Source of the DNA: Dehalococcoidia bacterium
Lineage (GTDB): Bacteria; Chloroflexota; Dehalococcoidia; UBA2979
Reading direction: 5' to 3'
NCBI GenBank assembly: GCA_965219085.1
Contig: OZ244720.1
Span: forward strand, 1,568,001-1,632,000
Length of the DNA stretch: 64,000 nt
This document shows, in pieces, positions 20,490-60,711 of the stretch; within the stretch, counting starts at the first letter, position 1; every line of letters starts with the position of its first letter. The notes beneath the pieces are model-generated. The model worked only from the letters and a program-made list of their open reading frames with translations. It was not told the origin of the DNA and searched no databases. Made by a program: the position numbers and the translations under genes.

Positions 20490-20568
20490 GCACGAGGCCG
20501 GGCCGCGACGGCACACGGCCGCTCTCAGCACACACACGGCGAACACGAACCGAAGGAGCGCTGCGCCC

Positions 20569-24829: not shown

Positions 24830-24838
24830 CGTGCGACG

Positions 24839-24870
24839 ATCGTAGGCGGCGGACGTTTCACCGATGTTTC
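24839..24870 (-). promoter_or_regulatory. GlnR-type box pair and -10 element of the second glnA
   Basis: Minus strand reads GAAAC-N6-GAAAC (24870-24855) then TACGAT (24844-24839). Confidence 0.6.
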
Positions 24871-24905
24871 TCGCAGGCATCGTCCTGGCGTCGGCGGCGA
24901 GTGGC

Positions 24906-26018
24906 TCACTCGTCGCTAAGCTCCCGGAGTGCGGCGCGGATGCGCTCGGCCTCGTCGGCTGTGGCGGGGCGCGGGCGGTTCTCGTCGGGGTCGATGTACG
25001 CCGGACGGAAGTCGATGCTCGGTGGGGCATCCTCGCGCAGCTCGACCACGGCGACGACGCTCGCGAACGGCCCCTCGCCGAGCGTCGCGAGGTCGTCGCG
25101 GTCGAGGTCGAAGACGAAGTTGCCGAGGCCGTAGAGGATCAGCGCGTCGCCTCGGCGCTCCCACGGCTGGAGCGTGTGCCCGTGGTGTCCGGCCACGAGG
25201 GTGGCCCCGGCATCCGCGGCGGCGCGGGCGAGCAGGCGCTGCTCTTCGGTGGGGTCGGGGTCGTACTCCGTGCCGAAGTGGAAGACCACGACGACGAAGT
25301 CGGCCTCGACGGTGGCGGCCTGCACCGCGGCGATCACCTCCTCGTGGCCCGCCTCGGCGACACCGGAGCGCGACTCGCCGGCGAAGACCGAGGAGCGCAC
25401 CGCGCTGAACCCGAGCAGTGCGAGGCGGAATCCGCTCGCCTCGAGCATGAGCGGCCGCGCCGCCTCGGTGGCGTCGCCGCCCGCTCCGAAGTGCGCCACC
25501 CCGAGCGCGTCGAGGGCCTCGCGCGTGTCGATGAGGCCGACCGGCCCGAAGTCGAGCGCGTGGTTGTTGGCAAGCGAGACGGCGTCGAAGCCGGCCTCGC
25601 GCAGCGTCGGCGCGAGCGAGGGCGGCGCACGGAACGTGTAGTACTTGTTCGCGCGCACGCCGCGGTCGGTGAAGGCGCCCTCGAGGTTGCCGATCAGCAC
25701 GTCCACGCCCCTGAACAGCCGGGTCACGCGCTCGAACGGGTAGCCGGGGCCGTGCTCCTGCATGAGCGTGACCACGTCACGCGCAAACATCAGGTCGCCG
25801 ACGAGGCCGATCGTCACTGTGGGCGGCCCGGGCGTCGCGGTCGGTGCGAGCGTGGCAGGCGCGGCGGTCGGTGTCAGGGCCGATGCGGCAACGGTCGGTG
25901 CTGCGGGATCCGCGGGCGTCGGGGTCATGAGCCCGGGCCCGCGCACCGGCTCCCTCGCCGCGCAGGCCATGAGCAGCGCGATGAGCGCCGACGCCATCGC
26001 GGCGCGGAGGGCGGGCAT
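24906..26018 (-). CDS. CapA/PGA_cap family metallophosphatase-like lipoprotein
   Basis: LMAC lipobox, Pro/Thr linker, VGDLM, GNLE, SLANNHALDFG, HFGTEY, GHHGH, YGLGNFVFD. Confidence 0.88.
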   Translation of the reverse strand: MPALRAAMASALIALLMACAAREPVRGPGLMTPTPADPAAPTVAASALTPTAAPATLAPTATPGPPTVTIGLVGDLMFARDVVTLMQEHGPGYPFERVTRLFRGVDVLIGNLEGAFTDRGVRANKYYTFRAPPSLAPTLREAGFDAVSLANNHALDFGPVGLIDTREALDALGVAHFGAGGDATEAARPLMLEASGFRLALLGFSAVRSSVFAGESRSGVAEAGHEEVIAAVQAATVEADFVVVVFHFGTEYDPDPTEEQRLLARAAADAGATLVAGHHGHTLQPWERRGDALILYGLGNFVFDLDRDDLATLGEGPFASVVAVVELREDAPPSIDFRPAYIDPDENRPRPATADEAERIRAALRELSDE

Positions 26019-26032
26019 GCGACTGCGCGCGG

Positions 26033-27529
26033 CTACGGCCCGCAGCCGCTGATGATCAGCGGCTCGCGCCAGAGGCGGCCGAACCTGAATGTACCCTCGA
26101 ACGCGGCGTTCGCGGCAGCGTCGGCCGAGGGGTCGAGCGTCACGAATGCACCCTCCCACTCGTGCCGCCCGTTGGCGACGGCGATCGCGCCGGGGGCGCA
26201 CTCCGTCTCCAACGCGTGGCGGAGCCGCTCGACGCCGCCGGTGTAGATGGTGAGCGTCTCGGTGCTGCTTCGCACGGAGGGTTCGAGGTACGTCGGGTGC
26301 CCGCAGTAGTCCACGCGCAGCGGAGCCACGTCGAGTCCCTCCGGGAACGCCGCCTCGAAGTCGGCGTTGTGCGGGCTCGCGATCCCGTTCGGCGCGACCG
26401 CGTAGGAAACCCATCGCGTCTCGCCGTCCTCGATCACCGATCCGTAGACGATGACGCCGCCCGGGCACTGCGCGCCCAGGATGCCCCGGAAGTCCTCGTG
26501 TGAGCCGCTGAAGGTGATCAGACCGGGCCGGATGCCCGCCCACTGGGACCAGGCGCCTTCGCCGAGACCGTTCCAGGAGCGGACGCGGAACGTGCGAGCC
26601 GGAGCGTGGAATACGGTCTCAATGGCCGTCTGGGTCTTGCCGCCCACCCACGCGATCTCGGACCAGTAGTCGTAGCCGATGAGGTGGTCGATGGCGTGTC
26701 GGCGTTCGACCTGGTGGGCGAAGATGTCGCTGCCGCCGGCGTCGGGGGCGACCCACCGCAGGCGCACCTCCCGCGGGCCGATCCCGATGATGGTGAGCGA
26801 CGGCGGGCGTGCGGGCACGGTGACGTCGTCACGGGCGAGCACGGGCTCCGACCACTCGCTGGCGCCCGCACCGTTCCAGGATCGGATCCGGTACGCGCGC
26901 CCGGGCTCCTCGAACGGGTTGTCGATCGTGAACGCAAAGCGCGAGTCGCCTTCGGGCCACTCGGTGAACGCCCAGAAGCCGACGACGATGCGGTGATCGG
27001 AGCCGAAGAGCCGCTCGAGCTCGTAGCGAATCACGGGGCTGCCGTTCTCGACGGGCGTGCTCCACTCAATCGTGATCGACTCGGCGCTCACGGCGGTGAC
27101 GGCGAGGTCCGTGATTGCAGCGGGCGCGGCGGCGGGGGTGCCGTGCGCGGGCTCGGACCACTCGCCGGCGCCCGCCGCGCTGACTGCGCGTACGCGGTAC
27201 CAGTAGCGCTGACCCTGGGTCAGTGGGCGGTCGCGAAGCGCCGCGAACCCGGGATGGGACGTGAGGTCTGTCCACTGCTCACCGTCGTCGCTGCGCTGGA
27301 TGTCGTAGCCGGTGACCGGTTCGCCGTTGTCGGCCGGTACGGACCAGCGCAGCACGAGCGAGCCCCCGCTGCCGATCCGGACGGCGAGGGCCTCCACCCG
27401 GTCGGGCGGTGTGGCCACGTTGGAGCTGACTGCGGCCTCCCCTTCGGCCGCCGCCGGAGCCACCGCGACCGCAAGCCACCCGAGCGCAGCGAGGGCGACC
27501 GACGCGGCGAGGACAAACGCGCGGCTCAC
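26033..27529 (-). CDS. Secreted fibronectin type III repeat protein with duplicated C-terminal domain
   Basis: Signal peptide; three Fn3 repeats (W..P..NG..I..Y...YRVRA.N..G...WS); two ~75-aa Cys-bounded C-terminal repeats. Confidence 0.85.
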   Translation of the reverse strand: MSRAFVLAASVALAALGWLAVAVAPAAAEGEAAVSSNVATPPDRVEALAVRIGSGGSLVLRWSVPADNGEPVTGYDIQRSDDGEQWTDLTSHPGFAALRDRPLTQGQRYWYRVRAVSAAGAGEWSEPAHGTPAAAPAAITDLAVTAVSAESITIEWSTPVENGSPVIRYELERLFGSDHRIVVGFWAFTEWPEGDSRFAFTIDNPFEEPGRAYRIRSWNGAGASEWSEPVLARDDVTVPARPPSLTIIGIGPREVRLRWVAPDAGGSDIFAHQVERRHAIDHLIGYDYWSEIAWVGGKTQTAIETVFHAPARTFRVRSWNGLGEGAWSQWAGIRPGLITFSGSHEDFRGILGAQCPGGVIVYGSVIEDGETRWVSYAVAPNGIASPHNADFEAAFPEGLDVAPLRVDYCGHPTYLEPSVRSSTETLTIYTGGVERLRHALETECAPGAIAVANGRHEWEGAFVTLDPSADAAANAAFEGTFRFGRLWREPLIISGCGP

Positions 27530-32456: not shown

Positions 32457-33101
32457 TGACCGGACCCCCTTCGCGAGACCACCGATTATGAGAGTCCAGC
32501 GTGTTGCTGAGCCTCCCAGCGCTCGGCGTAGGCAGCCGGGGCGAGCCAGCCCAGGCTGCTATGCGGGCGCTGCGTGTTGTACTCGATCCGCCAGTCCTCG
32601 ATGAGCACCTGCGCCTCGAGCAGGCTGTCGAACTGCTCGACGGCCAGGAACTCGTCGCGCAGCCGGCCGTTGAACGGCTCCACGTACGGGTTCTCCCACG
32701 GCGCGCCGGGCTCGATGTAGCTGCTGCCCGTGCCGGAGAACCGGCACCAGTCACGCAGCGCGTTGGCCGTGAGCTCGGGCCCGTTGTCACAGCGGATGTA
32801 CCCCGGCGCCGTCCCGCGCCCGGCGACGATCCGGTCGAGCGTCGCGGCGGTGGCGTCGGCGTTGATACGCCTGGCGGCCACCACCGCCAGCGCCTCCCGC
32901 GTGTGCTCGTCGACGACGTTGAGCAGCTTCAGGACCCGCCCGTCCGCGGTCTGGTCGAACTGGAAGTCCAGCGCCCAGACGTGGTTCGGCCGCTCGGCCC
33001 GCAGCCTGGCGGCGGGCACCGCCGAGTCCCCCAGACGCTGACGCTTGCGGCGTTTCACCGGGACGCGCAGCCCCTCCTCACGCCAGAGCCGTTGCACCCG
33101 C
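32457..33101 (-). mobile_element. IS3-family remnant (integrase core and one terminal inverted repeat)
   Basis: RVQRLWREEGL, RPNHVWALDF, IRCDNGPE, IEPGAPWENPYVE.FNGRLRDE, YNTQRPHSSLG; terminus ...GGGGGTCCGGTCA at 32457; orfA and the N-terminus are missing. Confidence 0.88.
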
Positions 33102-33745
33102 ATCCGCGAGGCGCGCTTCCCACGCCTCAAGTACCTCGCCGACTTCGGCCTGGAGGCGGCGCCGACCGTCGACCCGGCGCTGCTCGCCGCACTCGAACGC
33201 GGCGAGTGGATCGCCCAGCGCGAGCCCGTCGTGCTGCTCGGCGACAGCGGTACCGGCAAGTCGCACCTGCTGATCGGCCTCGGCATGGCCGCCTGCCAGC
33301 GCGGGCTGCGGGTGCGCTACACGACGGCGGCCGCGCTCGTGAACGAACTGGCCGAGGCGGCCGACGAGCGCACTCTCTCGCGCCTGGTCGCCCGCTACGG
33401 GCGGCTCGACCTGCTGTGCCTCGACGAGTTCGGCGACGTCCACCTCGACCCGCGCGGCGCCGAGTTGCTCTTCCAGATCCTGACCGAGCGCGAGGAGCGG
33501 GCCTCGGTGGCGGTCGCCTCCAGCGCCCCCTTCTCGGAGTGGGGCCGCACCTTCACCCACGCCCCCTCGCCGCCGCGGTCATCGACCGCCTCACCTTCCG
33601 CGCCCACATCATCCAGACCGGAACCGAGTCCTACCGGCTGCGGATCACCACCGCTGCGAAGGGAGGTGCGCAGACCAACTGATCACACCCCCGGAGGTAG
33701 GGCCCAAACCGATCATCAGGGTGGGGCCGAGTCTGGTCATCCCCA
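33099..33745 (+). mobile_element. istB: IS21-family remnant (truncated, frameshifted istB and right end)
   Basis: RIREARFP, GDSGTGKSHL, LLCLDEFG, frameshift near 33560 before AAAVIDRLT...GTESYR; tandem G(T/A)GGGCC end repeats ending in CA at about 33745; no istA. Confidence 0.85.
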
Positions 33746-34400: not shown

Positions 34401-35825
34401 TTAGTCGTTGAAGTACATCTCGTACTCGAACGGGGTGGGGCGCTGGGCCTGTTCGGCCACCTCGGAGCGCTTGAACTCGAGCCAGGTGTCGAGCACGTCT
34501 TGCGTGAAGACGCCGCCCTGCAGCAGGTAGTCGTGGTCGGCTTCCAGTGCGTCGAGCGCCTCGCCGAGGTTGCCCGGCACCTGTGGGAGGCCCATGGCCT
34601 CCTCGGTCGGCAGGTCGTAGATGTTGCGGTCCAGCGGGTCGCCGGGGTCGATCTGGTTCTGGATGCCGTCCAGGCCGGCCATCAGCATCGCCGAGAACGC
34701 GAGGTAGCAGTTCGCGCTCGGGTCCGGCGGGCGGAACTCGATGCGGGTGGTCTCCGCCCAGTCCGGCATGCCGATGCGGTAGGTGGAGATGCGGATCGCG
34801 GCGGAGCGGTTGCGCATCGAGTAGACGAGGTTCACGGGCGCCTCGAAGCCCGGTACCAGTCGCTTGTACGAGTTGGTCGTCGGCGCGGCGAACGCGAGCA
34901 CGCTGTGTGCGTGGCGGAGCAGGCCGCCCGTGTACCAGCGCGCGAGCTGCGAGAGGCCGGCGTAGCCGTCGGCGTCGAAAAAGAGCGGCACGCCGTCCTT
35001 CCACAGCGACTGGTGCGTGTGCATCCCCGAGCCGTTGTCGCCGTAGATCGGCTTCGGCATGAAGGTCGCGACCTTGCCGTCCTGGCGGGCGATGTTGCGG
35101 ACCAGGTACTTGTACCACTGGGCCACGTCGGCCTGCCTGACGAGGGTGTTCTTGCCCACGCCGATCTCGGCCTGGCCGGCCGTCGCCACCTCGTGGTGGT
35201 CGACGAAGGTGTCGATGCCGCAGTTGTTCATGGCCGTGACGATCTCGGCGCGCAGGTCGGCGGTGTCATCGAATGGCGGAAGCGGCGCGTAGCCCTCCTT
35301 GCCGGGGATCTTGTAGCCGAGGTTCGGTGCGTCGCCGGAGCCGGAGTTCCAGTGCGCCTCGACCGAGTCGATCTCGTAGTAGGCCGACTGCGGAGTCTGC
35401 TGGTAGCGGACGTCGTCGAAGAGGAAGAACTCGAGCTCGGGGCCGAAGAACGCCTCGTCGGCGATGCCCGTGGACTTCATGTACTCCTCGGCCTTGACCG
35501 CGACGTTGCGCGGGTCACGCGAGTAGCGGTCGCGCGTGACGGTGTCGATGACGCCGCACACGAGCGCGAGGGTCGGCTGGGCCGGGATGGGGTCGATGAC
35601 GGCGGACTCGATGTCCGGGACGAGCAGCATGTCGGACTCGTGGATCTCCTGGAACCCGCGCAGGCTCGAGCCGTCGAAGCCGTTGCCGTTCGCGAACAGG
35701 TCCTCGTCGAGCGCCTTCGGCGGGATCGTGAAGTGGTTCCAGCGGCCGAGCAGGTCCGTCACGCGCAGATCGACGCGCATGATGTTGTTCTGCTGTACCA
35801 GTGCCGTCAGCTCCTGCAGGTTCAA
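34401..35825 (-). CDS. glnA: Glutamine synthetase type I-beta
   Basis: FDGSSLRGFQEIHESDM, HHEVATAGQAEI, FMPKPIYGDNGSGMH.HQSLW, NRSA.IRI and the NIYDLP adenylylation site. Confidence 0.97.
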   Translation of the reverse strand: MNLQELTALVQQNNIMRVDLRVTDLLGRWNHFTIPPKALDEDLFANGNGFDGSSLRGFQEIHESDMLLVPDIESAVIDPIPAQPTLALVCGVIDTVTRDRYSRDPRNVAVKAEEYMKSTGIADEAFFGPELEFFLFDDVRYQQTPQSAYYEIDSVEAHWNSGSGDAPNLGYKIPGKEGYAPLPPFDDTADLRAEIVTAMNNCGIDTFVDHHEVATAGQAEIGVGKNTLVRQADVAQWYKYLVRNIARQDGKVATFMPKPIYGDNGSGMHTHQSLWKDGVPLFFDADGYAGLSQLARWYTGGLLRHAHSVLAFAAPTTNSYKRLVPGFEAPVNLVYSMRNRSAAIRISTYRIGMPDWAETTRIEFRPPDPSANCYLAFSAMLMAGLDGIQNQIDPGDPLDRNIYDLPTEEAMGLPQVPGNLGEALDALEADHDYLLQGGVFTQDVLDTWLEFKRSEVAEQAQRPTPFEYEMYFND

Positions 35826-50938: not shown

Positions 50939-53900
50939 TTAGCTTCCGGTGAGCAACAGTATCGCCGCGATGCGCCGCGCGGTGTCGGTGACGTGCTGGA
51001 TCTCCTCGGCGCGGAGCGGGCGGTCCAGCACCTTGTGCTCGCGGTAGGAGAGCCACTTCTTGAGCACCTGGTAGCCGCCGAGCTTGTAGTTCCAGACGGC
51101 GGCCGGAACGTTGCGCCAGCAGGCCCGGTCGTTGAGATGGACGTCGAACGTCGTCTCGCCGAGGGTCGTGACTGCGTCGCCCATCGAGGAGCGCTCGTCC
51201 GCCGTGAGCGGCCGCTCGTCGGCCCTGCCCTGGCCGGGCATGACGGCCTCGCGGCTGCCGAAGTGGCCCCAGCCCGCCGTGACCGAGAAGTCGTCCCCCG
51301 ACATGTTGTGGCCGTCGACGGTCGTCGGCACGCCGATCGCCGCGAGCTCGGCCCGGAGCGCGCCGGTGGTGACGCCCGGCACGGGCGTGTCGACATCGAG
51401 GAGCACGGCGAGTTCGCGGCCGCGCGCCGCCGACGCCTCGAGCTCCTCGGCCGCGCCGTCCGCGTTGCCGTCGGGCCAGCCGGGGAGCGGGATGCGTGGC
51501 CACTCCATGCGCAGCGCGCCCGCATTGGCCTCGCGGTAGGCGGGGTTGTGCAGCGTCGCCAGCACGTGGTGGAACAGATCCTCGACGCCGAGACCGAGGC
51601 GGTCGAGGTAGCTCTGGGCTGCGTCCGACAGGTTGGGCCGCCGGCCCGCCCCGTCTGCGCCGAGCCCCAGCCCCTCGTCGCGCAACCACAGCGGGAACAG
51701 GTGCACTCCCCAGTTTCCAAGCTTCCAGTTGCTGAGATGACGTATTGAGATGCCGTGTGAGAACTCGTGATCAATCTCTCGCTTATTCGAACCCAGCCAG
51801 AGATTCTTGCCAGTGACGTGCGACTTGTAGTCTGCGCGCTTCTCGTCTAGCAGCTTCGTGTCTGCCTCCCAGTAGAGCCAACGATCGTCGAAGGGCCGGT
51901 ATGCGCAGCGAACGAAACCTGCCTCGGTCGGGCCACCGCGCGCGAGCAGCGCGGCACGCACGTGACGCGCGTCAAACCGCGCCGTGGAGCGCATGACGCC
52001 CGGGTGGCTGCGGGCGATCTCCTCGTCGCTTAGATCCGGGTCAAAGTACTCGGCAACGCGCGTTTCGAGCCGGTCGCGATCGATATCGAGGAGGAATGCG
52101 TCGCGGCTGGTCTTCACTCCCGGGAACGAGGTCGGGAACAGGTCAGGCAGCGCCGGCCAGTCGGACCAACCGTCGCTGACCGCGATCTGTGCGAAGGGCA
52201 GGCCCAGCGGCAGCAGCGGCTCGACGGCTTCGTAGAGTGCGTCCGGCTCGGCGTCAGCCGTGGCCGTCAACCCGTCTCGCTTCGCCTGGCCCCAGAGCTG
52301 GCGGAAGCCGATCGCCTCCGCCGGTTCGTGGTCGGCCTTGCGCACCAGCGTCGTGATCGCCGTCCCGACCTGGATGCCGACCGGGTCCTCAGGCGCGGAG
52401 AAGATGCTCGGGTCGGGCTCCCCGTCCGGCGTCGTCTTGCCCGTCTTGTACTTGTCGCCGTTGAGCGAGTCGATGCGGATCACGTCGAAGGCTTCGAGGT
52501 AGCGCTCGCGCATGCCCGTGAACGAGAGGCCGTCCAGCCACGAGTAGTTCGAGATGAAGCAGACCACGCCGCGACCGGTCTTTTCCGCGATCCGCCGCTC
52601 CGCCATGCGGAAGAAGCGCACATAGAGGTCGTTGAGCCCCTGGCCCTCGGGCCGCCGCACTTGCTGCGTCGTGCGGTACGCCGTGGACAACTCGCGCTCC
52701 TCGTCCACCGCCATCCCGGCGAAGCCGTTGTACGGCGGATTGCCGAGGATCACGAGCACGGGCGTGTCCTGCTTCACACGGTCGGCGCGGTCGCGCTCCT
52801 CCTCGAGCTCCGGGAAGGGGAGCGGCTTCTGGGTGGTCGGCTCCCAGCCGGTCAGTGCATTCGTCAGGAACACGCTTGCCCGCTCCGGCCTATTGGGGTC
52901 GTCGGAGAGCGGCGCGTCCAGCGCCTGCATCGTCAGGCCGACCTGCAGGTGGGCGACGACGAACGGCGCGGGCATGATCTCGAAGCCGAACACGCGCTCC
53001 ATCGCCGCCCGCTTGACCCGCGCGCCCGTCAGCGCGCCGCTCCCCTGCGCCCGCAGGTTCGCGTCGATGCGTCGCAGCACCTCGCCGAGGTACGCGCCGG
53101 TGCCGCAGCACGGGTCGAGCACGTAGACGTTGTCGGCCGCCAGTCCGTCGGCGATGCCGAGGTCGTCCTTCAGTGCGCGGTCCACGCGCGCGACCATGTA
53201 GCGCACCACCTCGTTGGGCGTGTACCAGACGCCCAGTTGCTTGCGCAGGTCGGGGTCGAACTCCGCGAAGAACGGCTCGTAGAAGTACTGCACGGCCTCG
53301 CCCTCGCTGAAGCGTTCGAAGAACGCCTCGCGGTCCACGCGGTCGAGCGCCGCGGACGTCCAGTCCAGCACCTCGACGAGGCCGAGTGGTTGCAGGCGGC
53401 CGGGGTCGGATAGCTGCTGGAAGAGCGCCCGCAGGACGGCGCGCGCAGGTGCCAGACCGCCTCGCGCCAGTTGAACGACCCGGTGGGCGGCGGGGTCTGG
53501 CGCGCCCACAGCACCCACGCCGAGAACACGCCGTAGAAGAGCGTCTGCACCAGCGTCGAGCGGAAGAAGGCCGCGCCGCGCTCGCCCTCGAAGCGGACGC
53601 CGAGCGCCTCCTCGAGCGCCGCGCGCACCGCGTGCAGCGAGGGTTCATCGCCCGCCGCCTCGACCCGCGCGAGCCCGTCGCGCGCGTAGGAGGCGAGCAG
53701 CCACGCGACGTCTTTCGGCTCGACCAGCGTGGCGCGATGCGAGAGCGCGCGGCTGAGGTACTCGCCAAGCCCCGCGCCGACCTCGCGCGCGAAGGTGCGC
53801 GGGCGCTCCAGCCGCGCCTCGAACGCGTCGGCGGAGTGGGCGAGCCGGACCGTCTCCAGCTTCGCGGGCTTGCCGCTCGCGTCCTCGCCGAGCAGCACGA

Positions 53901-54284
53901 AGTCGCGGGTGTTGGTGACCAGCACCAGGCGGTACTTTTCCCAGTACTTGCTCACCTGGTCGCTCTCGGCGGTGAGCCAGGCGTCGTCGGCAGCGGGCTT
54001 CACTTCGATGACACCGCGCTCCGGGCTTTGACCCTCGCGCGGCTTGCCTTCTGGATCTGTTTGCCGGAGTAGAGCCCGATGTCGGGGTGCCCCGCGCCCT
54101 GGTCCGCCAGCTCGCTGATGCAGAACACCCTGGGCCTGAGTGCGCCGCCCACCGCGTTGAGCAAGTTGATGAGCGGCGGGTAGTAGGAGCGTTCGCTTGT
54201 CGCGCCGCCGGACGCGCGGATCTTGCGCAGGTCGGTCAGGTAGTCCTCGACCATCCGGGTCAGCCGGGCGTCGGCGGCGGTCAT
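50939..54284 (-). pseudogene. Type IIG / type ISP-like fused restriction-modification enzyme with two frameshifts
   Basis: N-terminal nuclease G.PD...IEVK; YFYEPF, GVWYTP, LDPCCGTG (motif I), GNPPY (motif IV); C-terminal ISP-like specificity region. Single-base deletions near 54047 and 53438; adding 2 nt restores a 1115-aa frame. Confidence 0.85.
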
Positions 54285-54396
54285 GGGCGCAATGTGGCGG
54301 CACCGACGGGCGAAGCGCAAGCGCGTGTTTCGCGTGGCCGCGACTGTTTGACGCCGACGAGCGCTGCCACCGGCCCGGGAGCCGCGACTCCGCGGG

Positions 54397-56112
54397 CTAC
54401 TGGCCGCTCAGCGTGAGGATCCGCGCCGCCTCCTCGAGCGTGGAGGTGACGCGCAGGGCGTCCCAGACGTCGGTCCCGCGGGCGTAGCTGCCGTGGCCGC
54501 GCACGACGACGATCGGGTGCTCGCGGAGCGCGTCGGCGACTGGCTGCGCCGAGGACTCCCACTCCGCCTCCACCACCGGCACGCTGCCGAGGAAGAGCCG
54601 CCCCTCGAGGTTCGCGGGGTCGATCGCGTCGCGCCCGTAGGCGAGCGCGATGGCGTGGACGGGATGGGCGTGCACCACCGCGCCGGCGTCGGCGCACGCC
54701 TCGTAGATGGCGAGGTGCACGGCCGTGTCGGACGATGGCGCGGCGGCGTCCTCGTCGCGCGGCTGGCCGTCGGCGTCGACGGCCACGAGGAGGTCGTTCG
54801 TCAGCCGCCCGAGCATCGCGCCTGTCGCGGAGATGAGCGCGCCGCTGCGCGCGGCGCGGACCGAGACGTTGCCGCCGTGCGAGGTCACGAGGCCGTCCGC
54901 GCGGAGGTCCGTGCCGACCTCGATCAGCTCGCTGGTGGCGGTGGTCTCGGCCGCAGTCGCGGCGTAGTCCCACACGCCGCGTCGCACGAGGCGTTCCGCG
55001 GCGCCCTCGGCCAGCTCGGCGGCGCGGCGCATCGCCTCCGCCTCGAAGATGCGGTTGGTGGTGAGCGTCTCGAAGTCGACGACGCCCGATGTGGCGCCGT
55101 CGACGCTGCCGGCCACGACGACGCACGGCGTCTCGTAGCGCTCGGCGAGCGCGGTGACCATTTCGAGGGCCTTGCCGAACGTGGTCTGCGCGTCGAGGCG
55201 GCCCTCGCCGGTGATGATGAGGTCGGCGTCGCGGATCGCGTCCTCCAGGCCCACGGCCTCGGCGATCAGGGCTGCGCCGGACTGAATCGCGCCGCCGATC
55301 GTGCCGATCAGCCCCGCCGCGAGCCCGCCGCCCGCGCCGCCGCCGGCGAGGTCGGTGACCTCGACGCCGAGGTCCGAGGCGATCACGGCCGCCCAGCGCC
55401 GCAACGCTTCCTCGAGCGGCTGCATGAGGTCCTCGCCGACGCCCTTCTGCGGGCCGTAGACCACCGTCGCTCCCTCGGGCCCGAGCAGCACGTTGGTCAC
55501 GTCGGCGGCGACCGTGAGGTTGATGTCACCGAGCCTGCGGTCGACGGCGTTGTGGTCGAGCGCGACCAGCCTGGCCAGGTCGAGGGCCGCGACGGGCTCT
55601 GCCATCGCCCACGCGTCGGTGCTGACGAGCTGGTAGCCGAACGCCTGCGCTGCGCCCGCGCCGCCGTCGTTGGTCGCGGTGCCGCCGACGCCCACGATGA
55701 TCTCGCCCGCCCCGCGGTCGACCGCCGCGCGGATGAGCTGGCCGACGCCGTACGACGTCGCGCGCGCGGGGTCGCGCTCGTCGGGCGGGACGAGCACGAG
55801 GCCGGCCGCCTCGGCGGCCTCGATGACCGCGCCGGATCGTCCGCCGGCGGTTGCCGGCGGCAGCAACGCGAAGCGGGCGCGCACGGGGGCGCCCATCGGC
55901 CCGGTGACCTCGGCCTCGACGAGCTCGCCGCCGCGGGCGGCCGCGAGGACGGCGGCGGTGCCCGGTCCGCCGTCGGCGAGGGGCATCTCGATGATCTCGG
56001 CGTCGGGTTCGCCGGCGCGCGCGCCGGCGGCGAGGGCGGCGGCGGCCTCGAAGGCGGTGAGGGAGCCCTTGAACTCCTGCGGGCAGATCAGGATCCGAAG
56101 CGGCGGGCTCAT
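54397..56112 (-). CDS. Fusion of GlxK/GarK-type glycerate kinase and class II aldolase/adducin domain
   Basis: FKGSL, PLADGGPGT, GGTATNDGG, TGEGRLD.QT..GK; then GGNVSVR, PSSD..VH..IY, VHAHP, RGHG. Confidence 0.85.
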   Translation of the reverse strand: MSPPLRILICPQEFKGSLTAFEAAAALAAGARAGEPDAEIIEMPLADGGPGTAAVLAAARGGELVEAEVTGPMGAPVRARFALLPPATAGGRSGAVIEAAEAAGLVLVPPDERDPARATSYGVGQLIRAAVDRGAGEIIVGVGGTATNDGGAGAAQAFGYQLVSTDAWAMAEPVAALDLARLVALDHNAVDRRLGDINLTVAADVTNVLLGPEGATVVYGPQKGVGEDLMQPLEEALRRWAAVIASDLGVEVTDLAGGGAGGGLAAGLIGTIGGAIQSGAALIAEAVGLEDAIRDADLIITGEGRLDAQTTFGKALEMVTALAERYETPCVVVAGSVDGATSGVVDFETLTTNRIFEAEAMRRAAELAEGAAERLVRRGVWDYAATAAETTATSELIEVGTDLRADGLVTSHGGNVSVRAARSGALISATGAMLGRLTNDLLVAVDADGQPRDEDAAAPSSDTAVHLAIYEACADAGAVVHAHPVHAIALAYGRDAIDPANLEGRLFLGSVPVVEAEWESSAQPVADALREHPIVVVRGHGSYARGTDVWDALRVTSTLEEAARILTLSGQ

Positions 56113-56161
56113 CGCTGCGTCCTTTCCTCGGGCGCTATGGGCGTGCGCCCCTCGGTGGGTG

Positions 56162-56341
56162 TTACGTGCCCCAGAAGCCGGCGAGGCGCAGCACCGCGCT
56201 GATGAGGATCGCGGCCACGTAGGCGTAGCCGAGCGTGCGCGCGTTCTTGCCGAGCTGGCGGAACCGCCTCGGCTGCATGATCGTCAGCCAGACGATGACC
56301 AGGCCGACGGCGATGAATCCCCAGTAGACGAGGCGCCACAT
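56162..56341 (-). CDS. Small two-TM membrane protein (59 aa)
   Basis: MWRLVYWGFIAVGLVIVWLTIMQPRRFRQLGKNARTLGYAYVAAILISAVLRLAGFWGT with native codon usage; below the ORF-track cutoff. Confidence 0.65.
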   Translation of the reverse strand: MWRLVYWGFIAVGLVIVWLTIMQPRRFRQLGKNARTLGYAYVAAILISAVLRLAGFWGT

Positions 56342-56389
56342 CGCCTCGCATCGTAGCGGAGCGTGCCCGCGAGCGGGTGTCGCGGCCGG

Positions 56390-56734
56390 TCAGCGGAGGT
56401 CCGCTGGAACCATGACCGTTGTCCCTGGCAGGATCACCTGCACGTAGTCGACCCGGTCCTGCACCGTCGGCACCCGTGCGGGGCACTCCTCACCCAACCG
56501 GAACACGTTGAACCTGGTCGCCACGCCCGCGCTCGGGAGGACCGCGGTACACACGCGGATGGCTTGCCCGAGGCCGACGTTCCCCGCGATGTGGCCCCGA
56601 TGGGAGACGTACGCTCCGGTCGATCCGATGTCAGCTTCGGTGGTGTCCAGCCCCTTCAGGATGGAGCTGACCATGGTGAAGACGGTCAGGACCAGGAACG
56701 CGGCGACGAGGAGTTGCCAGATGCGGACCATCAT
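56390..56734 (-). CDS. Secreted/membrane-anchored partner of LuxR-LRR copy 1
   Basis: ATGA overlap with the upstream stop; N-terminal TM; EADIGS motif shared with 58079-58270. Confidence 0.55.
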   Translation of the reverse strand: MMVRIWQLLVAAFLVLTVFTMVSSILKGLDTTEADIGSTGAYVSHRGHIAGNVGLGQAIRVCTAVLPSAGVATRFNVFRLGEECPARVPTVQDRVDYVQVILPGTTVMVPADLR

Positions 56735-57921
56735 GGCTGGACCTCGAACCACCAGGACTCAGCAAGCAGGTCGAACAGTTCCTCGTAGTTGTCCCTGACG
56801 CTGACCGGGATCTCGTCCACGCTCCGGCTCCACTCCCCGCCGTACTTCGCGTCGAAGTGGTAGAAGGCGCCCGTCACCGTCTCCTCGAACAGGATGGCCG
56901 TGTTGCTCCGCGGATTCGCGGAGGGAGTCCTCCCTGGCACCAACCTGCGGATCGCCTTGACCACGCCGTCGAATCGCAGCGACAGGCCCCGGGGGACGTC
57001 GATGACGAGGTGCTTCTCCCCCGACCGGACGGGGCCCCAATGTCGGAAATGGTAGGTGCCGGGCGCGAGCACCCCCGAGGCGGACCAGAGGTCGGTCGAT
57101 GCCCCACAGTCGTCGAGGCCGGTCGAGGCAATGTCGTTCGTCGCCGCCTTGCGCAGCACGGGCGGGGCACACTCCTCGAAGCTGTTGTCCGCGAGCGAGA
57201 CGATCGTCAGGTTCGTCAGCAGCACGAGCTTCGACGGGATCATGCCCGTGAGGGCGTTGCCGTCGAGCCGGAGGTCCGTCAGCCCCGTGAGGTTGCCCAG
57301 CAGCCCCGACAACTCACCGTCGAGGCCGAGGTCCGACAGGTTCAGCGCGGTGACGCGCTGCGGCGTGCCGGAGACGGTGACACCCATCCACTCGGACATC
57401 GGCTTCCCGGCCGTCCAGTTGAGCTTGCCCGTCCCGCGCAGCGTGTCGCGGAGGCCGAGCAGCGCTTCGCAGTCCGCCACGAGCTCGGTGTTCGTGTCCG
57501 GGTTCGTCACCGCGACTCCCGACGAGCACGACATCACCTCGAACTCGGTCTCCGCCAGTGGGACGTCGATGGACTCCGCGTCGTCGCGGGACGCACCGAT
57601 GATGACGGCCAGGATGACGATCAATGCGCCGACCCCGGTCGCCGCCCCGAGCCCGGCGGCTGGCCTCACGAGCAGGCCGAACCAGCCGCGCGCTCTGCGG
57701 CGCGGCGGCTCGGGCTGCCACCCGGCCAGCTCGTGCCGGTTGGAGAGGTCGAGCTTCGAGAGCATGCTGGCGATGTGGGTCTTGACCGTCTCGCGGCTGA
57801 GCCCGAGCCGCGCGGCGATCTCGGCGTTCGTCCCGCCCTCGCGCAGCTCGTCGAGCACACGCTGCTCGGCCGGCGTCAGGACGCCGGGGTAGCGAGGTCT
57901 GCCGCCGCGCTCGCGCTCCAT
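56731..57921 (-). CDS. LuxR-HTH / TM / leucine-rich-repeat protein, copy 1
   Basis: LTPAEQRVL...TNAEIAARLGLSRETVKTHIASMLSKL (LuxR HTH); TM helix; LRR cap DCEALL...LNW...W.GVT; plant-type LRR LTDLRLDGNALTGMIPSKL. Confidence 0.85.
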   Translation of the reverse strand: MERERGGRPRYPGVLTPAEQRVLDELREGGTNAEIAARLGLSRETVKTHIASMLSKLDLSNRHELAGWQPEPPRRRARGWFGLLVRPAAGLGAATGVGALIVILAVIIGASRDDAESIDVPLAETEFEVMSCSSGVAVTNPDTNTELVADCEALLGLRDTLRGTGKLNWTAGKPMSEWMGVTVSGTPQRVTALNLSDLGLDGELSGLLGNLTGLTDLRLDGNALTGMIPSKLVLLTNLTIVSLADNSFEECAPPVLRKAATNDIASTGLDDCGASTDLWSASGVLAPGTYHFRHWGPVRSGEKHLVIDVPRGLSLRFDGVVKAIRRLVPGRTPSANPRSNTAILFEETVTGAFYHFDAKYGGEWSRSVDEIPVSVRDNYEELFDLLAESWWFEVQP

Positions 57922-57969
57922 GCCTCAATACTCACACGCCGATGGGGGAGGTTTCCTCACCCGACCTTG

Positions 57970-58270
57970 TGACCGCACGCCGAGTGCGCAACTGTGCGTC
58001 AGGCCTGCGGTGACTGAGTGGTAGGTCCCCGTGGGCGCGTCCGTCTCACCGCGCGAGTTGTCGGCCCAGGACACCAACTCACCCAACTTGCTGACGGAAC
58101 GAGCTCTTGCCAAGGGTCCTGTTGCGGGCCACGTACGGCTCGTCCATGTACGTCTGCGAAGATCCGATGTCCGCTTCAGCAGGACGCGGCTCGTCGACGA
58201 GGGCACGTACGGTGCCGCCAACGGTGATCGGGACGGCGAGGAACGAGAAGACAGCGCTGAGGACTCTCAC
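57970..58270 (-). pseudogene. Degraded partner gene of LuxR-LRR copy 2 with an RCC1-like repeat fragment
   Basis: GTG immediately after the upstream stop, TM and EADIGS, early stop at 58079; another frame gives SWADNSRGETDAPTGTYHSVTAGLTHSCAL (RCC1-like), cut off at the copy-1 upstream repeat. Confidence 0.5.
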
Positions 58271-59383
58271 CTACGGGCTCCCGCGCCACATTGACTCGAT
58301 GATCCGGTCGAAGATCTCATCGAGAGCCGCGTTAGGCTGGTTACCCTCGTAGCGGCGAGACCACTCCCCGAGCCACTTCACGTCGAGCCCAATTAGTGCG
58401 GTTGGGGCTGCATTCCGGAGGATGATGCCGACATCCCCACCCTTGGGTGGCCCCAGCGCGGTATCAGGAGTGGACAGGGTCACTCCCCTGAAGGTCAACT
58501 GAGCACCAGGCGGGATGTCGAAGACGAGGGGGGTATCCCCCAAGTCGAGGCGGTAGGTTCCAGGCGCGAGCACGGTCGGCCGGTAGAAGGTCTCGAGGTC
58601 GGTTGGCGCCCCACAGTCGTCCAGACCGCTCGTGGCCACGTCGTTTGTCGCCACCCTCCGCAGCACCGCCGGAGCACAACCGGTGAACGACGTGCCCGAC
58701 AGTGAGACGGTCGTCAGGTTCGTCAGCTGGCCCAGCTTCGACGGGAGCATGCCCGTGAGGGCGTTCCCGTCCAGCCGCAGGTCCGTCAGCCCCGTGAGGT
58801 TCCCGAGCAGGCCCGACAGCTGACCGTTCAAGCCAAGGTCCGCCAGGTTCAGGCCCGTCACACGCTGCGGGGTACCGGAAACGGTCACGCCCATCCAGTC
58901 GGACATCGGCTTCCAGGCCGTCCAGTTGAGCTTGCTCGTGCCGCGGATCGTCTCGCGGAAGCCCAGGAGCGACTCGCAGTCACCGACGAGCTCGGTGTTC
59001 GTCTCCGGGTTCGCCACCGCGAACCCCGACGAGCACGACACCACCTCGCGGGACGCACCGATGACTACGGCGAAGATGACGATCACCGCGCCGACCCCGG
59101 TCGCCGCCCCGAACCCGATCGCTGGCCTCACGAGCAGGCCGAACCAGCCGCGCGCTCCTCTGCGCGGCGGCTCGGGCCGCCACGCGGCCAGCTCACGCCG
59201 GTTGGCGAGGTCGAGCTTCGAGAGCATGCTGGCGATGTGGGTCTTGACCGTCTCGCGGCTGAGCCCGAGACGAGCGGCGATCTCGGCGTTCGACCCGCCG
59301 TCGCACAGCTCCTCGAGCACACGCTGCTCGGCCGGCGTCAGGACGCCGGGGTAGCGAGGTCTGCCGCCACGGTCGCGCTCCAT
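58271..59383 (-). CDS. LuxR-HTH / TM / leucine-rich-repeat protein, copy 2
   Basis: Same architecture as 56731-57921; near-identical N-terminus and diverged C-terminal ~100 aa. Confidence 0.85.
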   Translation of the reverse strand: MERDRGGRPRYPGVLTPAEQRVLEELCDGGSNAEIAARLGLSRETVKTHIASMLSKLDLANRRELAAWRPEPPRRGARGWFGLLVRPAIGFGAATGVGAVIVIFAVVIGASREVVSCSSGFAVANPETNTELVGDCESLLGFRETIRGTSKLNWTAWKPMSDWMGVTVSGTPQRVTGLNLADLGLNGQLSGLLGNLTGLTDLRLDGNALTGMLPSKLGQLTNLTTVSLSGTSFTGCAPAVLRRVATNDVATSGLDDCGAPTDLETFYRPTVLAPGTYRLDLGDTPLVFDIPPGAQLTFRGVTLSTPDTALGPPKGGDVGIILRNAAPTALIGLDVKWLGEWSRRYEGNQPNAALDEIFDRIIESMWRGSP

Positions 59384-59427
59384 GCCTCAATACTCACACG
59401 CCGAGGGGAGAGGTTTTCTCACCCGAC
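59384..59427 (-). repeat. 44-nt upstream element duplicated at 57922-57965
   Basis: GCCTCAATACTCACACGCCGA...CTCACCCGAC; 3 mismatches between the copies. Confidence 0.9.
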
Positions 59428-59430
59428 GAC

Positions 59431-59477
59431 TGGACACGAACGCACGTTCTGACTAGAGTATGTGAAACGTCTGTTCG
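59431..59477 (+). promoter_or_regulatory. Promoter with two LexA (SOS) boxes
   Basis: TGGACA-17 nt-TAGAGT; GAAC-GCAC-GTTC (59438-59449) in the spacer and AAAC-GTCT-GTTC (59465-59476) at the TSS. Confidence 0.75.
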
Positions 59478-59490
59478 ATGGAGACGCCCG

Positions 59491-59742
59491 ATGGTCACCA
59501 CTACCGCCCCCGCCACCCGCACCGTCGAGCGCCCCGCGCGGCCGAGGCGACCTGCGGAGGCCACCCGCGACGTGGCCGCCGAGGCGGTCACGCAGGTGCG
59601 CGCGCCGCGCCGGCTGCGTCGCATGGTCGCGTTCGGGCCGCGCTGCCCGGACTGCGCCGGGCCGCTCGCGTTCGGCGAGGGCTGCTCGCTTTGTCCCGTC
59701 TGCGGTTACTCGAGCTGCACACCGGCGCGCCGAGGCCCGTAG
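59491..59742 (+). CDS. Small protein with class II RNR (NrdJ)-type C-terminal Cys-rich Zn finger
   Basis: RBS GGAG; CPDC...EGCSLCPVCGYSSC. Confidence 0.7.
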   Translation: MVTTTAPATRTVERPARPRRPAEATRDVAAEAVTQVRAPRRLRRMVAFGPRCPDCAGPLAFGEGCSLCPVCGYSSCTPARRGP

Positions 59743-59835
59743 GGCCTGCGGGAGGGCGCATTTCGCCGTTGCATCCGTAGCCCTTGTGCGCGCCCCTTCG
59801 TATACTCGCGGAAATCCCCGGGGCGCAGAGGCGAC

Positions 59836-60711
59836 ATGGTCATCGGCGCGGCACGTGACACGGACCTCACCGCGCTGGGCAGGCGCATCCGACGCCATGT
59901 CGTGCGCATGGTCTACGACGCCAAGTCCGGACACATCGGCGGCTCACTCTCCGCCGTCGAGATCATGAGCGTGCTCTACTGCCGCATCATGCAGCACGAC
60001 CCCGAGCGGCCCGACTGGCCCGCGCGCGACCGCTTCATCATGAGCAAGGGCCACTGCACGCCGGTGCAGTACGCGCTCCTCGCCGAGCTCGGCTACTTCC
60101 CCGTCGACGAGCTGTCGACGTTCCGCCAACTCGGCTCGCGACTGCAGGGACACTCGGTGCGCAACCGCCCGCTCGGCGTCGAGAACTCGGCGGGCTCGCT
60201 CGGGATGGGGCTGTCGTTCGGCCTCGGGATGCGCCTCGCGGCACGCCTCGGCGAGGGCGACGTGCGCGCCGACACCCGCGTGTGGGTGCTGATGGGCGAC
60301 GGCGAGCAGAACGAGGGCCAGGTCTGGGAGGCGGCGATGGCCGCCGCCCACCACGACGCCGAGGGCCTGATCGCGCTCATCGACCGCAACGGCATCCAGA
60401 ACGACGACTTCACCCGCACCACCATGGTCACCGAGCCGCTCGACGAGAAGTACGCCGCGTTTGGCTGGGACGTGATCTCCGGCGTCGACGGCCACGACAT
60501 CGACGCCGTCGAGGCGGCGTTGCTGCACGCCCGCGACGTGCGAGGGCGGCCCGCCTGCGTGATCTTCGACACGGTGAAGGGACACGGCGTCTCCTTCATG
60601 GAGCACAACCCGGGCTTCCACGGCGCGCCGCCCAGCCCGGATCAGTTCGAGGAAGCGATGCGCGAACTCGCCGACCCCGACGACGCAAACGGCTCGGGAG
60701 CTGCCTCGTGA
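59836..60711 (+). CDS. Transketolase, N-terminal (ThDP-binding) subunit
   Basis: SGHIGGSLS, RDRFIMSKGH, GSLGMGLS, GDGEQNEGQVWEA, DGHD, TVKG.GV.FME...FHG. Confidence 0.93.
   Translation: MVIGAARDTDLTALGRRIRRHVVRMVYDAKSGHIGGSLSAVEIMSVLYCRIMQHDPERPDWPARDRFIMSKGHCTPVQYALLAELGYFPVDELSTFRQLGSRLQGHSVRNRPLGVENSAGSLGMGLSFGLGMRLAARLGEGDVRADTRVWVLMGDGEQNEGQVWEAAMAAAHHDAEGLIALIDRNGIQNDDFTRTTMVTEPLDEKYAAFGWDVISGVDGHDIDAVEAALLHARDVRGRPACVIFDTVKGHGVSFMEHNPGFHGAPPSPDQFEEAMRELADPDDANGSGAAS

Follow-up and report, generated by a model that had tools for sequence, protein, structure and literature searches.

Two paralogous genes, arranged in tandem on the minus strand of a 64 kb stretch of chromosome from a Dehalococcoidia bacterium (contig OZ244720.1, positions 1,568,001 to 1,632,000), are the subject of this work. 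The whole stretch is called here the window; coordinates are given in its numbering and amino acid (aa) positions in that of the first protein, P0001, unless otherwise stated. Gene 1 (56731..57921, minus strand, stop codon included) encodes P0001, of 396 aa, and gene 2 (58271..59383, minus strand) encodes its paralog P0002, of 370 aa. Both are intact open reading frames (ORFs) and, as had been stated in a preliminary description of this DNA, their products have the same architecture, with a helix-turn-helix (HTH) domain of the LuxR type, a single transmembrane (TM) segment, a Cys-capped leucine-rich repeat (LRR) module and a C-terminal domain, called here the tip. In gene 2, these parts are encoded on the minus strand at 59183-59344 (HTH), 59063-59119 (TM), 58607-59044 (LRR) and 58274-58606 (tip).

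P0001 and P0002 are identical at 251 of 394 aligned positions (64%), with regional values of 88% in the HTH, 62% in the TM segment and linker, 79% in the LRR module and 29% in the C-terminal 122 aa (35% when measured in a four-sequence alignment). Thus, the words "nearly identical", formerly applied to both the HTH and LRR regions, suit the first and are somewhat generous for the second. The skeleton of motifs said to persist in the divergent C-termini (PGTY, LV.D.P, D.K..GEWSR and E.FD...ES.W) is seen in full in the pairwise alignment, and a 15-aa indel separates the two proteins immediately past the membrane segment. No further copy of any part of P0001 or P0002 was found in the 64-kb window.

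Two things had escaped the preliminary description, namely the small ORF behind each gene, treated below, and the great size of the family, of which this pair represents a small part, relatives being abundant elsewhere. A word-indexed search for relatives of similar length retrieved 176 proteins, the two that carry names being hypothetical proteins of Chloroflexi/Dehalococcoidia metagenome-assembled genomes (MAGs); several of these relatives share one contig, a sign of numerous paralogs in each genome. An exhaustive search yielded 39,365 matches at E≤0.001 and 1,730 at E≤1e-30, its top being dominated by LRR repeat proteins of 1,000-7,800 aa in which the LRR module is repeated up to 35 times. 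When one genome per species was searched with the two most conserved HTH peptides as query, 424 of the 468 pattern matches encoded relatives. The best 80 were kept and correspond to 71 loci (handles beginning with L), to which all locus counts refer. Their record titles are those of Dehalococcoidia, Tepidiformaceae or Chloroflexota MAGs, except for two short contigs labelled Gemmatimonadetes (L047 and L058, of 2.3 and 5.1 kb), which carry typical family genes with the family promoter and could reflect a binning error or a transfer outside Chloroflexota. Up to seven loci come from one genome, this figure being a lower bound.

The ectodomains of the family were catalogued by a Pfam scan of 58 of the 71 ORFs, leaving out L001-L008 (of the window type), L032 (same ORF length, TM position and upstream sequence as L025), L034 and L038 (ORF not at the HTH start), and L054 and L058 (short). 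RCC1_2 is present in 27 of them, two of which also contain LRR; LRR without RCC1_2 appears in three, CarboxypepD_reg in three (one also with Peptidase_MA_2), and SH3_3, Cupredoxin_1 and fn3 in one each, while the remaining 22 have no Pfam domain beyond the HTH. The idea that the same HTH and TM segment would be found joined to a variety of other domains is, in outline, borne out by these 424 relatives and their many ectodomain types. Tandem arrays are frequent, with three copies in L004 (1054-6900, plus strand) and two each in L007 (4001-6700, plus strand) and L002 (4001-6411, plus strand), and every copy in an array has its own promoter box and -10 element. When 322 neighbouring ORFs from the 71 loci were clustered, no gene family recurred in more than eight loci, so that the family genes are stand-alone units. 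The sequences point to a large lineage-specific family of Dehalococcoidia-class Chloroflexota, in which one chassis of promoter, HTH and TM segment is combined with varied ectodomains.

The HTH of gene 1 (aa 14-67; 57721..57882, minus strand) matches the GerE/LuxR profile PF00196 with 53.5 bits, and that of P0002 with 56.8 bits, against a Pfam cut-off of 23.5. The closest solved structures by sequence are the DNA-binding domains of NarL (E 1.8e-7), DosR, VraR, ComA and GerE, with values up to E 2.6e-4, the NarL match spanning aa 13-69 and all four helices. In an AlphaFold2 model of P0001, built on 50 family members (whole-model predicted local distance difference test, pLDDT, 82.7), the four helices lie at aa 17-27, 32-39, 43-56 and 62-66, with pLDDT 86-96. 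The recognition helix reads TVKTHI in the window proteins, closely similar to TVKVHV in NarL, and is the most conserved stretch of the 50-member alignment, in which V46, H49, M53 and K56 are invariant and T45, K47 and I50 are conserved in at least 90%. Taking together the profile match and the modelled four-helix bundle, with the recognition helix in third place, the window proteins can be assigned to the GerE HTH family. The match exceeds the Pfam cut-off in 58 of 58 scanned members from other loci, and paralogs with unrelated ectodomains keep the HTH 60-79% identical. A conserved basic arm, GGRPR (aa 6-10), precedes the domain and presumably resembles the core of an AT-hook.

Neither the autoinducer-binding domain of quorum-sensing LuxR proteins, at E≤1, nor Trans_reg_C, the winged helix of OmpR type, was matched by Pfam in the window proteins, the HTH standing at the N-terminus instead. 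In PADLOC, only the HTH (aa 14-58) found a match, to the HTH end of a CARF model, the ectodomain and the small gene that follows gene 1 being unmatched; membership of an anti-phage defence system was considered and rejected, as nothing beyond this generic HTH part was matched.

A strongly hydrophobic segment, one per protein as assigned by hydropathy, is found at aa 90-108 of P0001 (57598..57654, minus strand; hydropathy 2.47) and at aa 89-107 of P0002. In P0001 it is flanked by four K/R before and one after, and by no D/E before and four after. The same holds across the family: a segment of this kind lies at about aa 76-126 in 67 of the 71 locus ORFs (69 of 73 with the two window proteins), and in these 69 proteins the 15 residues before it contain on average 0.06 acidic residues and 1.17 K/R, against 2.9 and 0.59, respectively, in the 15 residues after it. 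Cysteines average 0.014 ahead of the segment and 13.7 beyond it, their number being even in 62 of the 69. This is the pattern expected of proteins with the N-terminus inside, the C-terminus outside and a disulfide-bonded outer part, and this predicted topology agrees with the earlier placement of the ectodomain outside the cell. The HTH ends at about aa 68 and the hydrophobic stretch begins at about aa 79-90, leaving a tether of some 12-23 residues. Cultivated Tepidiformales are described as monoderm: outside the cytoplasmic membrane come a periplasm about 40 nm wide, which contains peptidoglycan, and an S-layer (PMC10284905). If the window organism were built in the same way, the S-layer would cover the 270-aa ectodomain, which would then encounter diffusible ligands and not other cells.

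The LRR module of gene 1 (aa 129-274; 57100..57537, minus strand), recognised from sequence, model and fold matches in the PDB, consists of an N-cap helix with two Cys, about three 24-residue repeats and a C-cap with Cys251 and Cys272. Repeats can be read at aa 189-212, 213-236 and 237-260, the second being a perfect LxxLxLxxNxLTGxIPxxL unit. The plant-specific LRR consensus is LxxLxLxxNxLtGxIPxxLxxLxx, of 24 residues. Because the window module has only about three such repeats, its Pfam LRR_1 scores (15.8 and 18.3 bits) stay under the cut-off of 20.6, while close relatives carry a precomputed PF00560. In the AlphaFold model this part reaches pLDDT 92-98, and a Foldseek search of the PDB with the ectodomain model placed BAK1/SERK1/SERK2, BIR2/BIR3, SOBIR1, FLS2 and PGIP at the top (E 1.4e-7 to 1e-5); among the matches listed, every one that names its molecule is a plant LRR ectodomain. 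Thus, the module is predicted to be a curved solenoid with an N-terminal cap, closest in fold to plant LRR ectodomains.

The ectodomains of the plant co-receptors SERK1/BAK1, BIR and SOBIR1 are likewise short LRRs with an N-terminal cap helix and 24-residue LxxLxLxxNxLtGxIP repeats, with 24-29% identity to the window module over about 115-180 columns. However, they have about five repeats where the window module has three, the cap cysteines are positioned differently, and the intracellular output is a kinase in the plant receptors and an HTH in the window proteins. It has to be noted that this similarity says nothing about common descent. The same module (aa 130-275) is repeated 10-35 times in the proteins of 1,000-7,800 aa mentioned above, and a few proteins devoid of an HTH carry the module together with the tip at the C-terminus; it is therefore a common extracellular building block.

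The tip of gene 1 (aa 275-396; 56734..57099, minus strand) was modelled alone (last 122 aa) with pLDDT 85.2 and a predicted template modelling score (pTM) of 0.76, as seven strands and a long C-terminal helix. No fold match at E≤0.001 was obtained in the PDB (best E 0.56) or among predicted viral structures (best E 0.40), and the ESM Atlas gave only noise-level scores (≤0.80). Residues G288, T289, Y290, D308, P310, S389 and W391 are conserved over the 50 members. In the interval 56000-60000, the repeats that fall within the tip regions are short, of 26 nt or less. A diversity-generating retroelement was considered as the source of tip variation and rejected, a reverse transcriptase being absent from the 40 window ORFs scanned.

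Each of the two genes is preceded by a 44-nt element (57922..57965 for gene 1 and 59384..59427 for gene 2, both on the minus strand). The close similarity attributed to the two copies is confirmed, 41 of 44 positions being identical and the sequences diverging immediately upstream. In gene 1, the element contains a 14-nt box, CGGGTGAGGAAACC, at 57950-57963 and a -10-like hexamer, GAGTAT, at 57928-57933, followed by a 6-nt spacer and the ATG; in gene 2, the box is at 59412-59425 and GAGTAT at 59390-59395. This 14-nt box, the core of the element, has two matches in the 64-kb window, those of the two genes, against 0.14 expected from shuffles.

In the family, the box follows the consensus CGGGT-R-R-GG-W-AA and starts at -41 to -43 in 62 of 71 upstream regions, the window copies occupying -42..-29. 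The distance from the -10-like hexamer (GAGTAT in the window; TACGAT, TAGCGT, TAGGAT or TAGCAT in the loci) to the start codon is 6 nt in 64 of 71 and stays within 6-8 nt in the whole set of 71, a spacing from which transcription is predicted to begin on the start codon itself. A Shine-Dalgarno sequence is missing from most copies. The 44-nt element would therefore be a conserved promoter for a leaderless mRNA. The box occupies the position of the -35 hexamer, which it does not resemble (TTGACA), and neither sigma-70 consensus promoters nor intrinsic terminators were found for the two genes; without a -35 hexamer of sigma-70 type, a dedicated factor would be needed. An Rfam scan of 55500-60500 at E≤1 matched no RNA family, so the upstream element corresponds to no known RNA. 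An upstream in-frame start and a leader peptide were also considered and discarded, as they appear at single loci and are not conserved.

The specificity of this promoter was examined on both strands of the window and the 71 loci, about 630 kb in all. A weight matrix of the 44-nt element finds nearly all its matches immediately in front of family genes, among them additional tandem copies in L004, L007, L034, L038 and L061, the exceptions being two weak matches (17.7 and 12.4 bits) that do not precede family genes and one in L068 (17.9 bits) that was left unassigned. The 14-nt box, with two mismatches or fewer, has 144 matches, of which 80 stand before family genes at the right distance, 12 before other ORFs and 52 before none; 46 of these 52 have two mismatches, which is the noise level. 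As for exact matches, 40 precede family genes, two precede an HTH-less gene for a lipoprotein-like surface protein (L005/L006), and one precedes nothing. This gene, at 5221-9144 of L006 and 7343-9682 of L005 (both plus strand), has the box, the -10-like hexamer and a leaderless GTG start before a large protein (1,293 aa in L006, with no Pfam domain) containing internal repeated modules common to the family ectodomains, and it is the clearest case of a gene outside the family with the family promoter. L048 offers a like case, with the box at 8101 of the minus strand and two mismatches. Taking into account that the box stands before HTH-less surface genes, this promoter type can be said to belong to a set of surface-protein genes, most of which bear an HTH.

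As a separate observation, a 1,081-aa ORF of L013 (643-3930, plus strand) starts with a zinc-ribbon-like CxxC...CxxC sequence and is preceded by a box-like sequence with two mismatches and the right -10 geometry; it may represent another N-terminal cytoplasmic module placed on the same kind of promoter.

The evolution of the pair was followed by estimating synonymous (dS) and nonsynonymous (dN) divergence between P0001 and P0002 in each region by the method of Nei and Gojobori. The values were dS 0.076 and dN 0.058 in the HTH, 0.15 and 0.099 in the TM segment and linker, 0.43 and 0.13 in the LRR module, and 1.09 (saturated) and 0.72 in the tip. Thus, synonymous divergence climbs about 14-fold from HTH to tip within one gene pair. 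The family had been called "diversifying", and here the preliminary description cannot be followed as it stands, since selection at the protein level cannot produce such a rise; diversifying selection on the tips may play a part, but these numbers show something else. The gradient implies instead that the 5' part and promoter have recently been homogenised by gene conversion, that the 3' parts are of different origin through cassette exchange, or both. It indicates a 5' chassis probably kept uniform by gene conversion, and 3' tips that would be old, divergent and exchangeable. P0002 and P0014, a protein from a third genome, have 97% identity in the tip but only 82% in the LRR part, for which reason the tips are considered to behave as old, conserved, exchangeable cassettes on a scaffold of fixed residues.

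In a related genome (L002), a tandem pair is found at the same place, between glycerate kinase and transketolase flanks that are 86-87% identical in DNA. In both genomes the tandem copies are closer to each other than to their syntenic counterparts and show the same 5'-3' gradient. Over the HTH, the DNA of the window pair is 94% identical and that of the L002 pair 98%, against 86-88% when copies of the two genomes are compared. At the other end, the tips at this syntenic locus have only 24-30% of residues in common between the two genomes. This within-genome similarity fits either concerted evolution or independent duplications.

Among characterised systems, the closest in design are ToxR, TcpP and CadC, single-pass proteins with a cytoplasmic DNA-binding domain and a sensor outside, which have been grouped as transmembrane transcription regulators (PMC11856585). 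Like these one-component regulators, the window proteins have an N-terminal cytoplasmic DNA-binding domain, one TM helix and a C-terminal extracytoplasmic sensor (PMC11856585, PMC10269533). However, their DNA-binding domain is GerE/LuxR (PF00196) and not an OmpR-type winged helix, so they are not members of the ToxR/CadC family; moreover, their sensor is an LRR followed by a domain without a known fold match, and they belong to a much enlarged family in which ectodomains are swapped and the promoter is shared. They are ToxR-like in logic and not in family. A small gene for a membrane-anchored protein follows gene 1 as toxS follows toxR, although its conservation does not extend through the family.

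In their survey, Demey et al. (2023) collected 50,302 transmembrane transcription regulators, widespread in distribution and 56% of them single-pass, with GerE as the DNA-binding domain of 4,943 (PMC10269533). With their TM segment taken from hydropathy, the window proteins would come under its definition, namely a DNA-binding domain and at least one TM region in the same protein (PMC10269533). Its nine supplementary files hold no LRR entry; RCC1_2 occurs in four regulators, one example row pairing it with HTH_3, and the two Dehalococcoidia genomes taken in contributed one and three regulators (PMC10269533). Given the absence of LRR entries and the presence of two Dehalococcoidia genomes only, neither the window family nor its expansion is represented in that survey (PMC10269533). 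GerE-type membrane regulators are therefore already catalogued, none of them with an LRR ectodomain. The view that this architecture was uncharacterised is upheld to this extent, and neither a family of HTH-TM-LRR or HTH-TM-RCC1 proteins nor its promoter was described in the literature searched, most subscription journals lying outside it.

A parallel case of expansion is offered by Eggerthella lenta, in which DadR, HcdR and CadR have been shown genetically to be membrane-spanning activators of LuxR type (PMC9734109). These resemble the window family in their membrane-bound LuxR-type HTH, in lineage expansion (83 in one strain), in a conserved DNA-binding domain combined with divergent sensors, and in a hint of autoregulation; their sensor, however, consists of 10-12 N-terminal TM helices, the HTH is C-terminal, and they adjoin the enzyme gene that they control (PMC9734109). 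The window family, in contrast, combines an N-terminal HTH with one TM helix and a folded extracellular sensor, and lacks a conserved neighbour. From NarL, GerE and DosR the window HTH differs in lacking a receiver domain, in its N-terminal and membrane-tied position and in the additional GGRPR arm. Arrays of sensors are also formed by the RsgI-type anti-sigma factors of cellulolytic clostridia, paralogs in which one cytoplasmic module and one TM segment are combined with different extracellular binding modules. There, the cytoplasmic anti-sigma domain holds a partner sigma factor, whereas in the window family a DNA-binding domain takes this place and no conserved neighbour codes for a sigma factor.

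Taking into account the architecture, topology signals, fold similarities, family size, promoter conservation and specificity, and mosaic evolution observed, the reading that we favour, with a probability of roughly 0.55, is that each window gene encodes a single-pass transmembrane transcription regulator of LuxR type with a plant-type LRR sensor and an exchangeable tip, one of many paralogs sharing a chassis, which probably acts on the family box. According to this proposal, the N-terminal 70 residues, comprising the basic GRPR arm and the NarL/GerE-type HTH, would remain in the cytoplasm tethered to the membrane, and the disulfide-capped mini-LRR of plant receptor type, followed by the variable beta-rich tip, would stand outside the cytoplasmic membrane. 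Binding of a soluble ligand to the LRR or tip could change the oligomeric state or the proteolytic fate of the protein, and the HTH would then act on the family box, both in its own promoter and in those of paralogs and a few other genes for surface proteins. In this way, information from outside would set the expression of the surface repertoire.

Several points weigh against this proposal. In the roughly 630 kb scanned, the box was found before no candidate target other than family genes and two to four surface-protein genes, and a regulator directed mainly at its own kind is unusual. The box lies where region 4 of a sigma factor normally binds, and could instead be recognised by a separate sigma factor or activator, or serve as the site of a repressor. 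The symmetry of its inverted repeat across the family is weak, with 4.13 of 8 pairs against 3.88 in shuffled sequences, in a set of related sequences. The tether between HTH and membrane appears very short, and the AlphaFold model is poor for aa 74-126. Some family members lack an HTH (P0099, P0089, P0091 and P0079), P0099 passing directly from its first few residues to the membrane segment, as if the HTH had been precisely deleted. The LRR and other ectodomain modules also build giant, presumably structural surface proteins. Finally, that the protein binds DNA and senses a ligand, which sequence is its operator and in which direction it regulates are all matters of prediction. Although the two window copies of the box have 6-7 of 8 symmetric pairs, dyad symmetry as a sign of a dimeric operator was set aside, as the family exceeds the shuffled sequences by a real but small margin, in sequences that are related to one another.

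In the main rival reading, the window proteins would serve for surface display: the ectodomain would be the functional part, in adhesion or in binding outside molecules, and the HTH-TM region would be mainly a conserved N-terminal signal-anchor inherited with its promoter. The box would in that case be read by another factor, a dedicated sigma factor or activator, and the HTH would be vestigial or would act in feedback only. We hold this to be rather unlikely, although several facts argue for it: the kinds of ectodomain (LRR, RCC1, fn3, SH3) also occur in surface and "eukaryote-like" proteins, the LRR module recurs in the giant repeat proteins, HTH-less members exist, the same promoter type precedes HTH-less lipoprotein-like surface genes with common ectodomain modules, and a wider regulon was not found in the roughly 630 kb scanned. 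An anchor, however, needs no DNA-recognition helix, yet this helix is the best-conserved part of the protein, and both the conservation of the HTH among paralogs with unrelated ectodomains and the presence of GerE in every scanned member argue in the same direction. The alternative, already raised in the preliminary description, that the HTH-TM region is an anchor only is thereby weakened.

The short tether acquires another meaning if the protein is a tethered, inactive precursor from which ligand-triggered cleavage, by regulated intramembrane proteolysis as known for anti-sigma factors or in the manner of CadC, frees the 70-90-aa HTH region as a soluble, GerE-like dimer. So short a tether would make DNA binding at the membrane sterically demanding; GerE itself has 74 aa, a free domain of this size thus being a known functional unit; and the activation of CadC has been reported to depend on cleavage (PMC11484849). 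Against this, no protease gene is a conserved neighbour in the 71 loci, no cleavage motif was identified, and single-pass regulators of ToxR type are described as binding DNA while membrane-bound (PMC11856585). Proteolytic release is considered improbable here. That the divergent C-termini reflect neutral decay after tandem duplication, one or both genes being on the way to pseudogenes, is very unlikely: the small ORF behind gene 2 is indeed a truncated remnant and the G+C content at third codon positions is lower in gene 2 (0.86) than in gene 1 (0.93), but both reading frames are intact, the P0002 tip is preserved at 97% in another genome, the fold skeleton is conserved over 50 members with a tip pLDDT of 85, the related genome has a syntenic tandem pair, and the dS gradient does not suit decay either.

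Returning to the transmembrane regulator, its features can be combined, with considerable reserve, into a wider picture of a repertoire of surface receptors whose logic would be like that of plant receptor-like proteins. One chassis and one operator, the family box, would define a single self-amplifying regulon of surface proteins; the ectodomains (LRR with tips, RCC1 propellers, fn3) would recognise different ligands; gene conversion would keep chassis and promoter uniform, and cassette exchange between paralogs and genomes would diversify the tips. Since the genes are leaderless and encode membrane proteins, each protein would insert beside its own gene and could act on it in cis.

If the regulator reading is right, these proteins provide a compact, one-protein connection between an extracellular protein-recognition domain and a promoter, present in many copies per genome in a bacterial class that is abundant but almost uncultured. 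They would form a large and structurally distinct branch of the transmembrane transcription regulators, with LRR, RCC1 and fn3 ectodomains, whereas the regulators of this kind that have been characterised respond to small molecules, pH or bile by way of small domains in the periplasm or membrane. They would also give a handle on how these bacteria read their environment, through a defined 44-nt promoter, a 70-aa HTH and exchangeable sensor domains, and a modular chassis of possible use for engineered sensors. The steep 5'-to-3' synonymous gradient offers a clean natural example of how a gene family can stay uniform at one end while the other diversifies. The architecture, family size, shared leaderless promoter and mosaic evolution would surprise a specialist, while the function is what we infer from them.

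Gene 1 is followed by the small gene of P0261 (114 aa; 56390..56734, minus strand), whose ATG overlaps the stop codon of gene 1 (ATGA) and whose product has an N-terminal hydrophobic anchor and a C-terminal part with two Cys, with no Pfam match. Its one relative in another genome, P0262, is 62% identical overall and identical in the last 42 residues. A 63-aa ORF directly after gene 2 (58079..58270, minus strand) is a truncated and diverged copy of this small gene, a short DNA repeat, D10, being part of the evidence. Small anchored ORFs abut a family gene only in the window (the two copies), L007 and L028, and a tblastn search of the 71 loci with both small proteins gave as its best result one weak match, in L002 (E 0.001). 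A complex prediction between the P0001 ectodomain (aa 129-396) and the small protein (aa 26-114) had a score of 0.02 and a mark of 0.32, values that weigh on neither side as to binding. P0261 is a possible co-component of the receptor, its membership being uncertain.

The surrounding window is ordinary chromosome of about 69% G+C, with secA, valS, the nuo operon, two glnA genes, rpoB/rpoC, transketolase and a glycerate kinase-aldolase fusion. The last of these is a single 571-aa ORF (54397-56112, minus strand) in which glycerate kinase is fused to a class II aldolase domain; it lies directly downstream of the P0261 gene and is syntenic in L002. On the other side, between gene 2 and transketolase, lies an 83-aa ORF (59431-59742, plus strand) containing a CPDC...CSLCPVC zinc-ribbon motif. 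Upstream of this ORF stands TGGACA-17-TAGAGT, the one sigma-70-like promoter match of the region, which diverges from the box of gene 2 and adjoins it.

Further away, an 859-aa ORF of the Type IIG/ISP restriction-modification class (50939-54320, minus strand) has methylase and C-terminal specificity domains. It is shorter than the matching PADLOC profiles (about 1,090 positions), there are overlapping ORFs upstream (53170-54303 and 54000-54320), and it may be a split or frameshifted gene. An arylsulfotransferase-type beta-propeller ORF immediately after the nuo operon (20350-21756, plus strand) and a 498-aa protein with fibronectin type III domains (26033-27529, minus strand) may be further extracytoplasmic proteins of this organism. 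The two glutamine synthetase genes (23483-25030 and 34401-35825, both on the minus strand) lie about 10 kb apart, with an insertion sequence (IS) element integrase (rve) ORF between them (32486-33286, minus strand).

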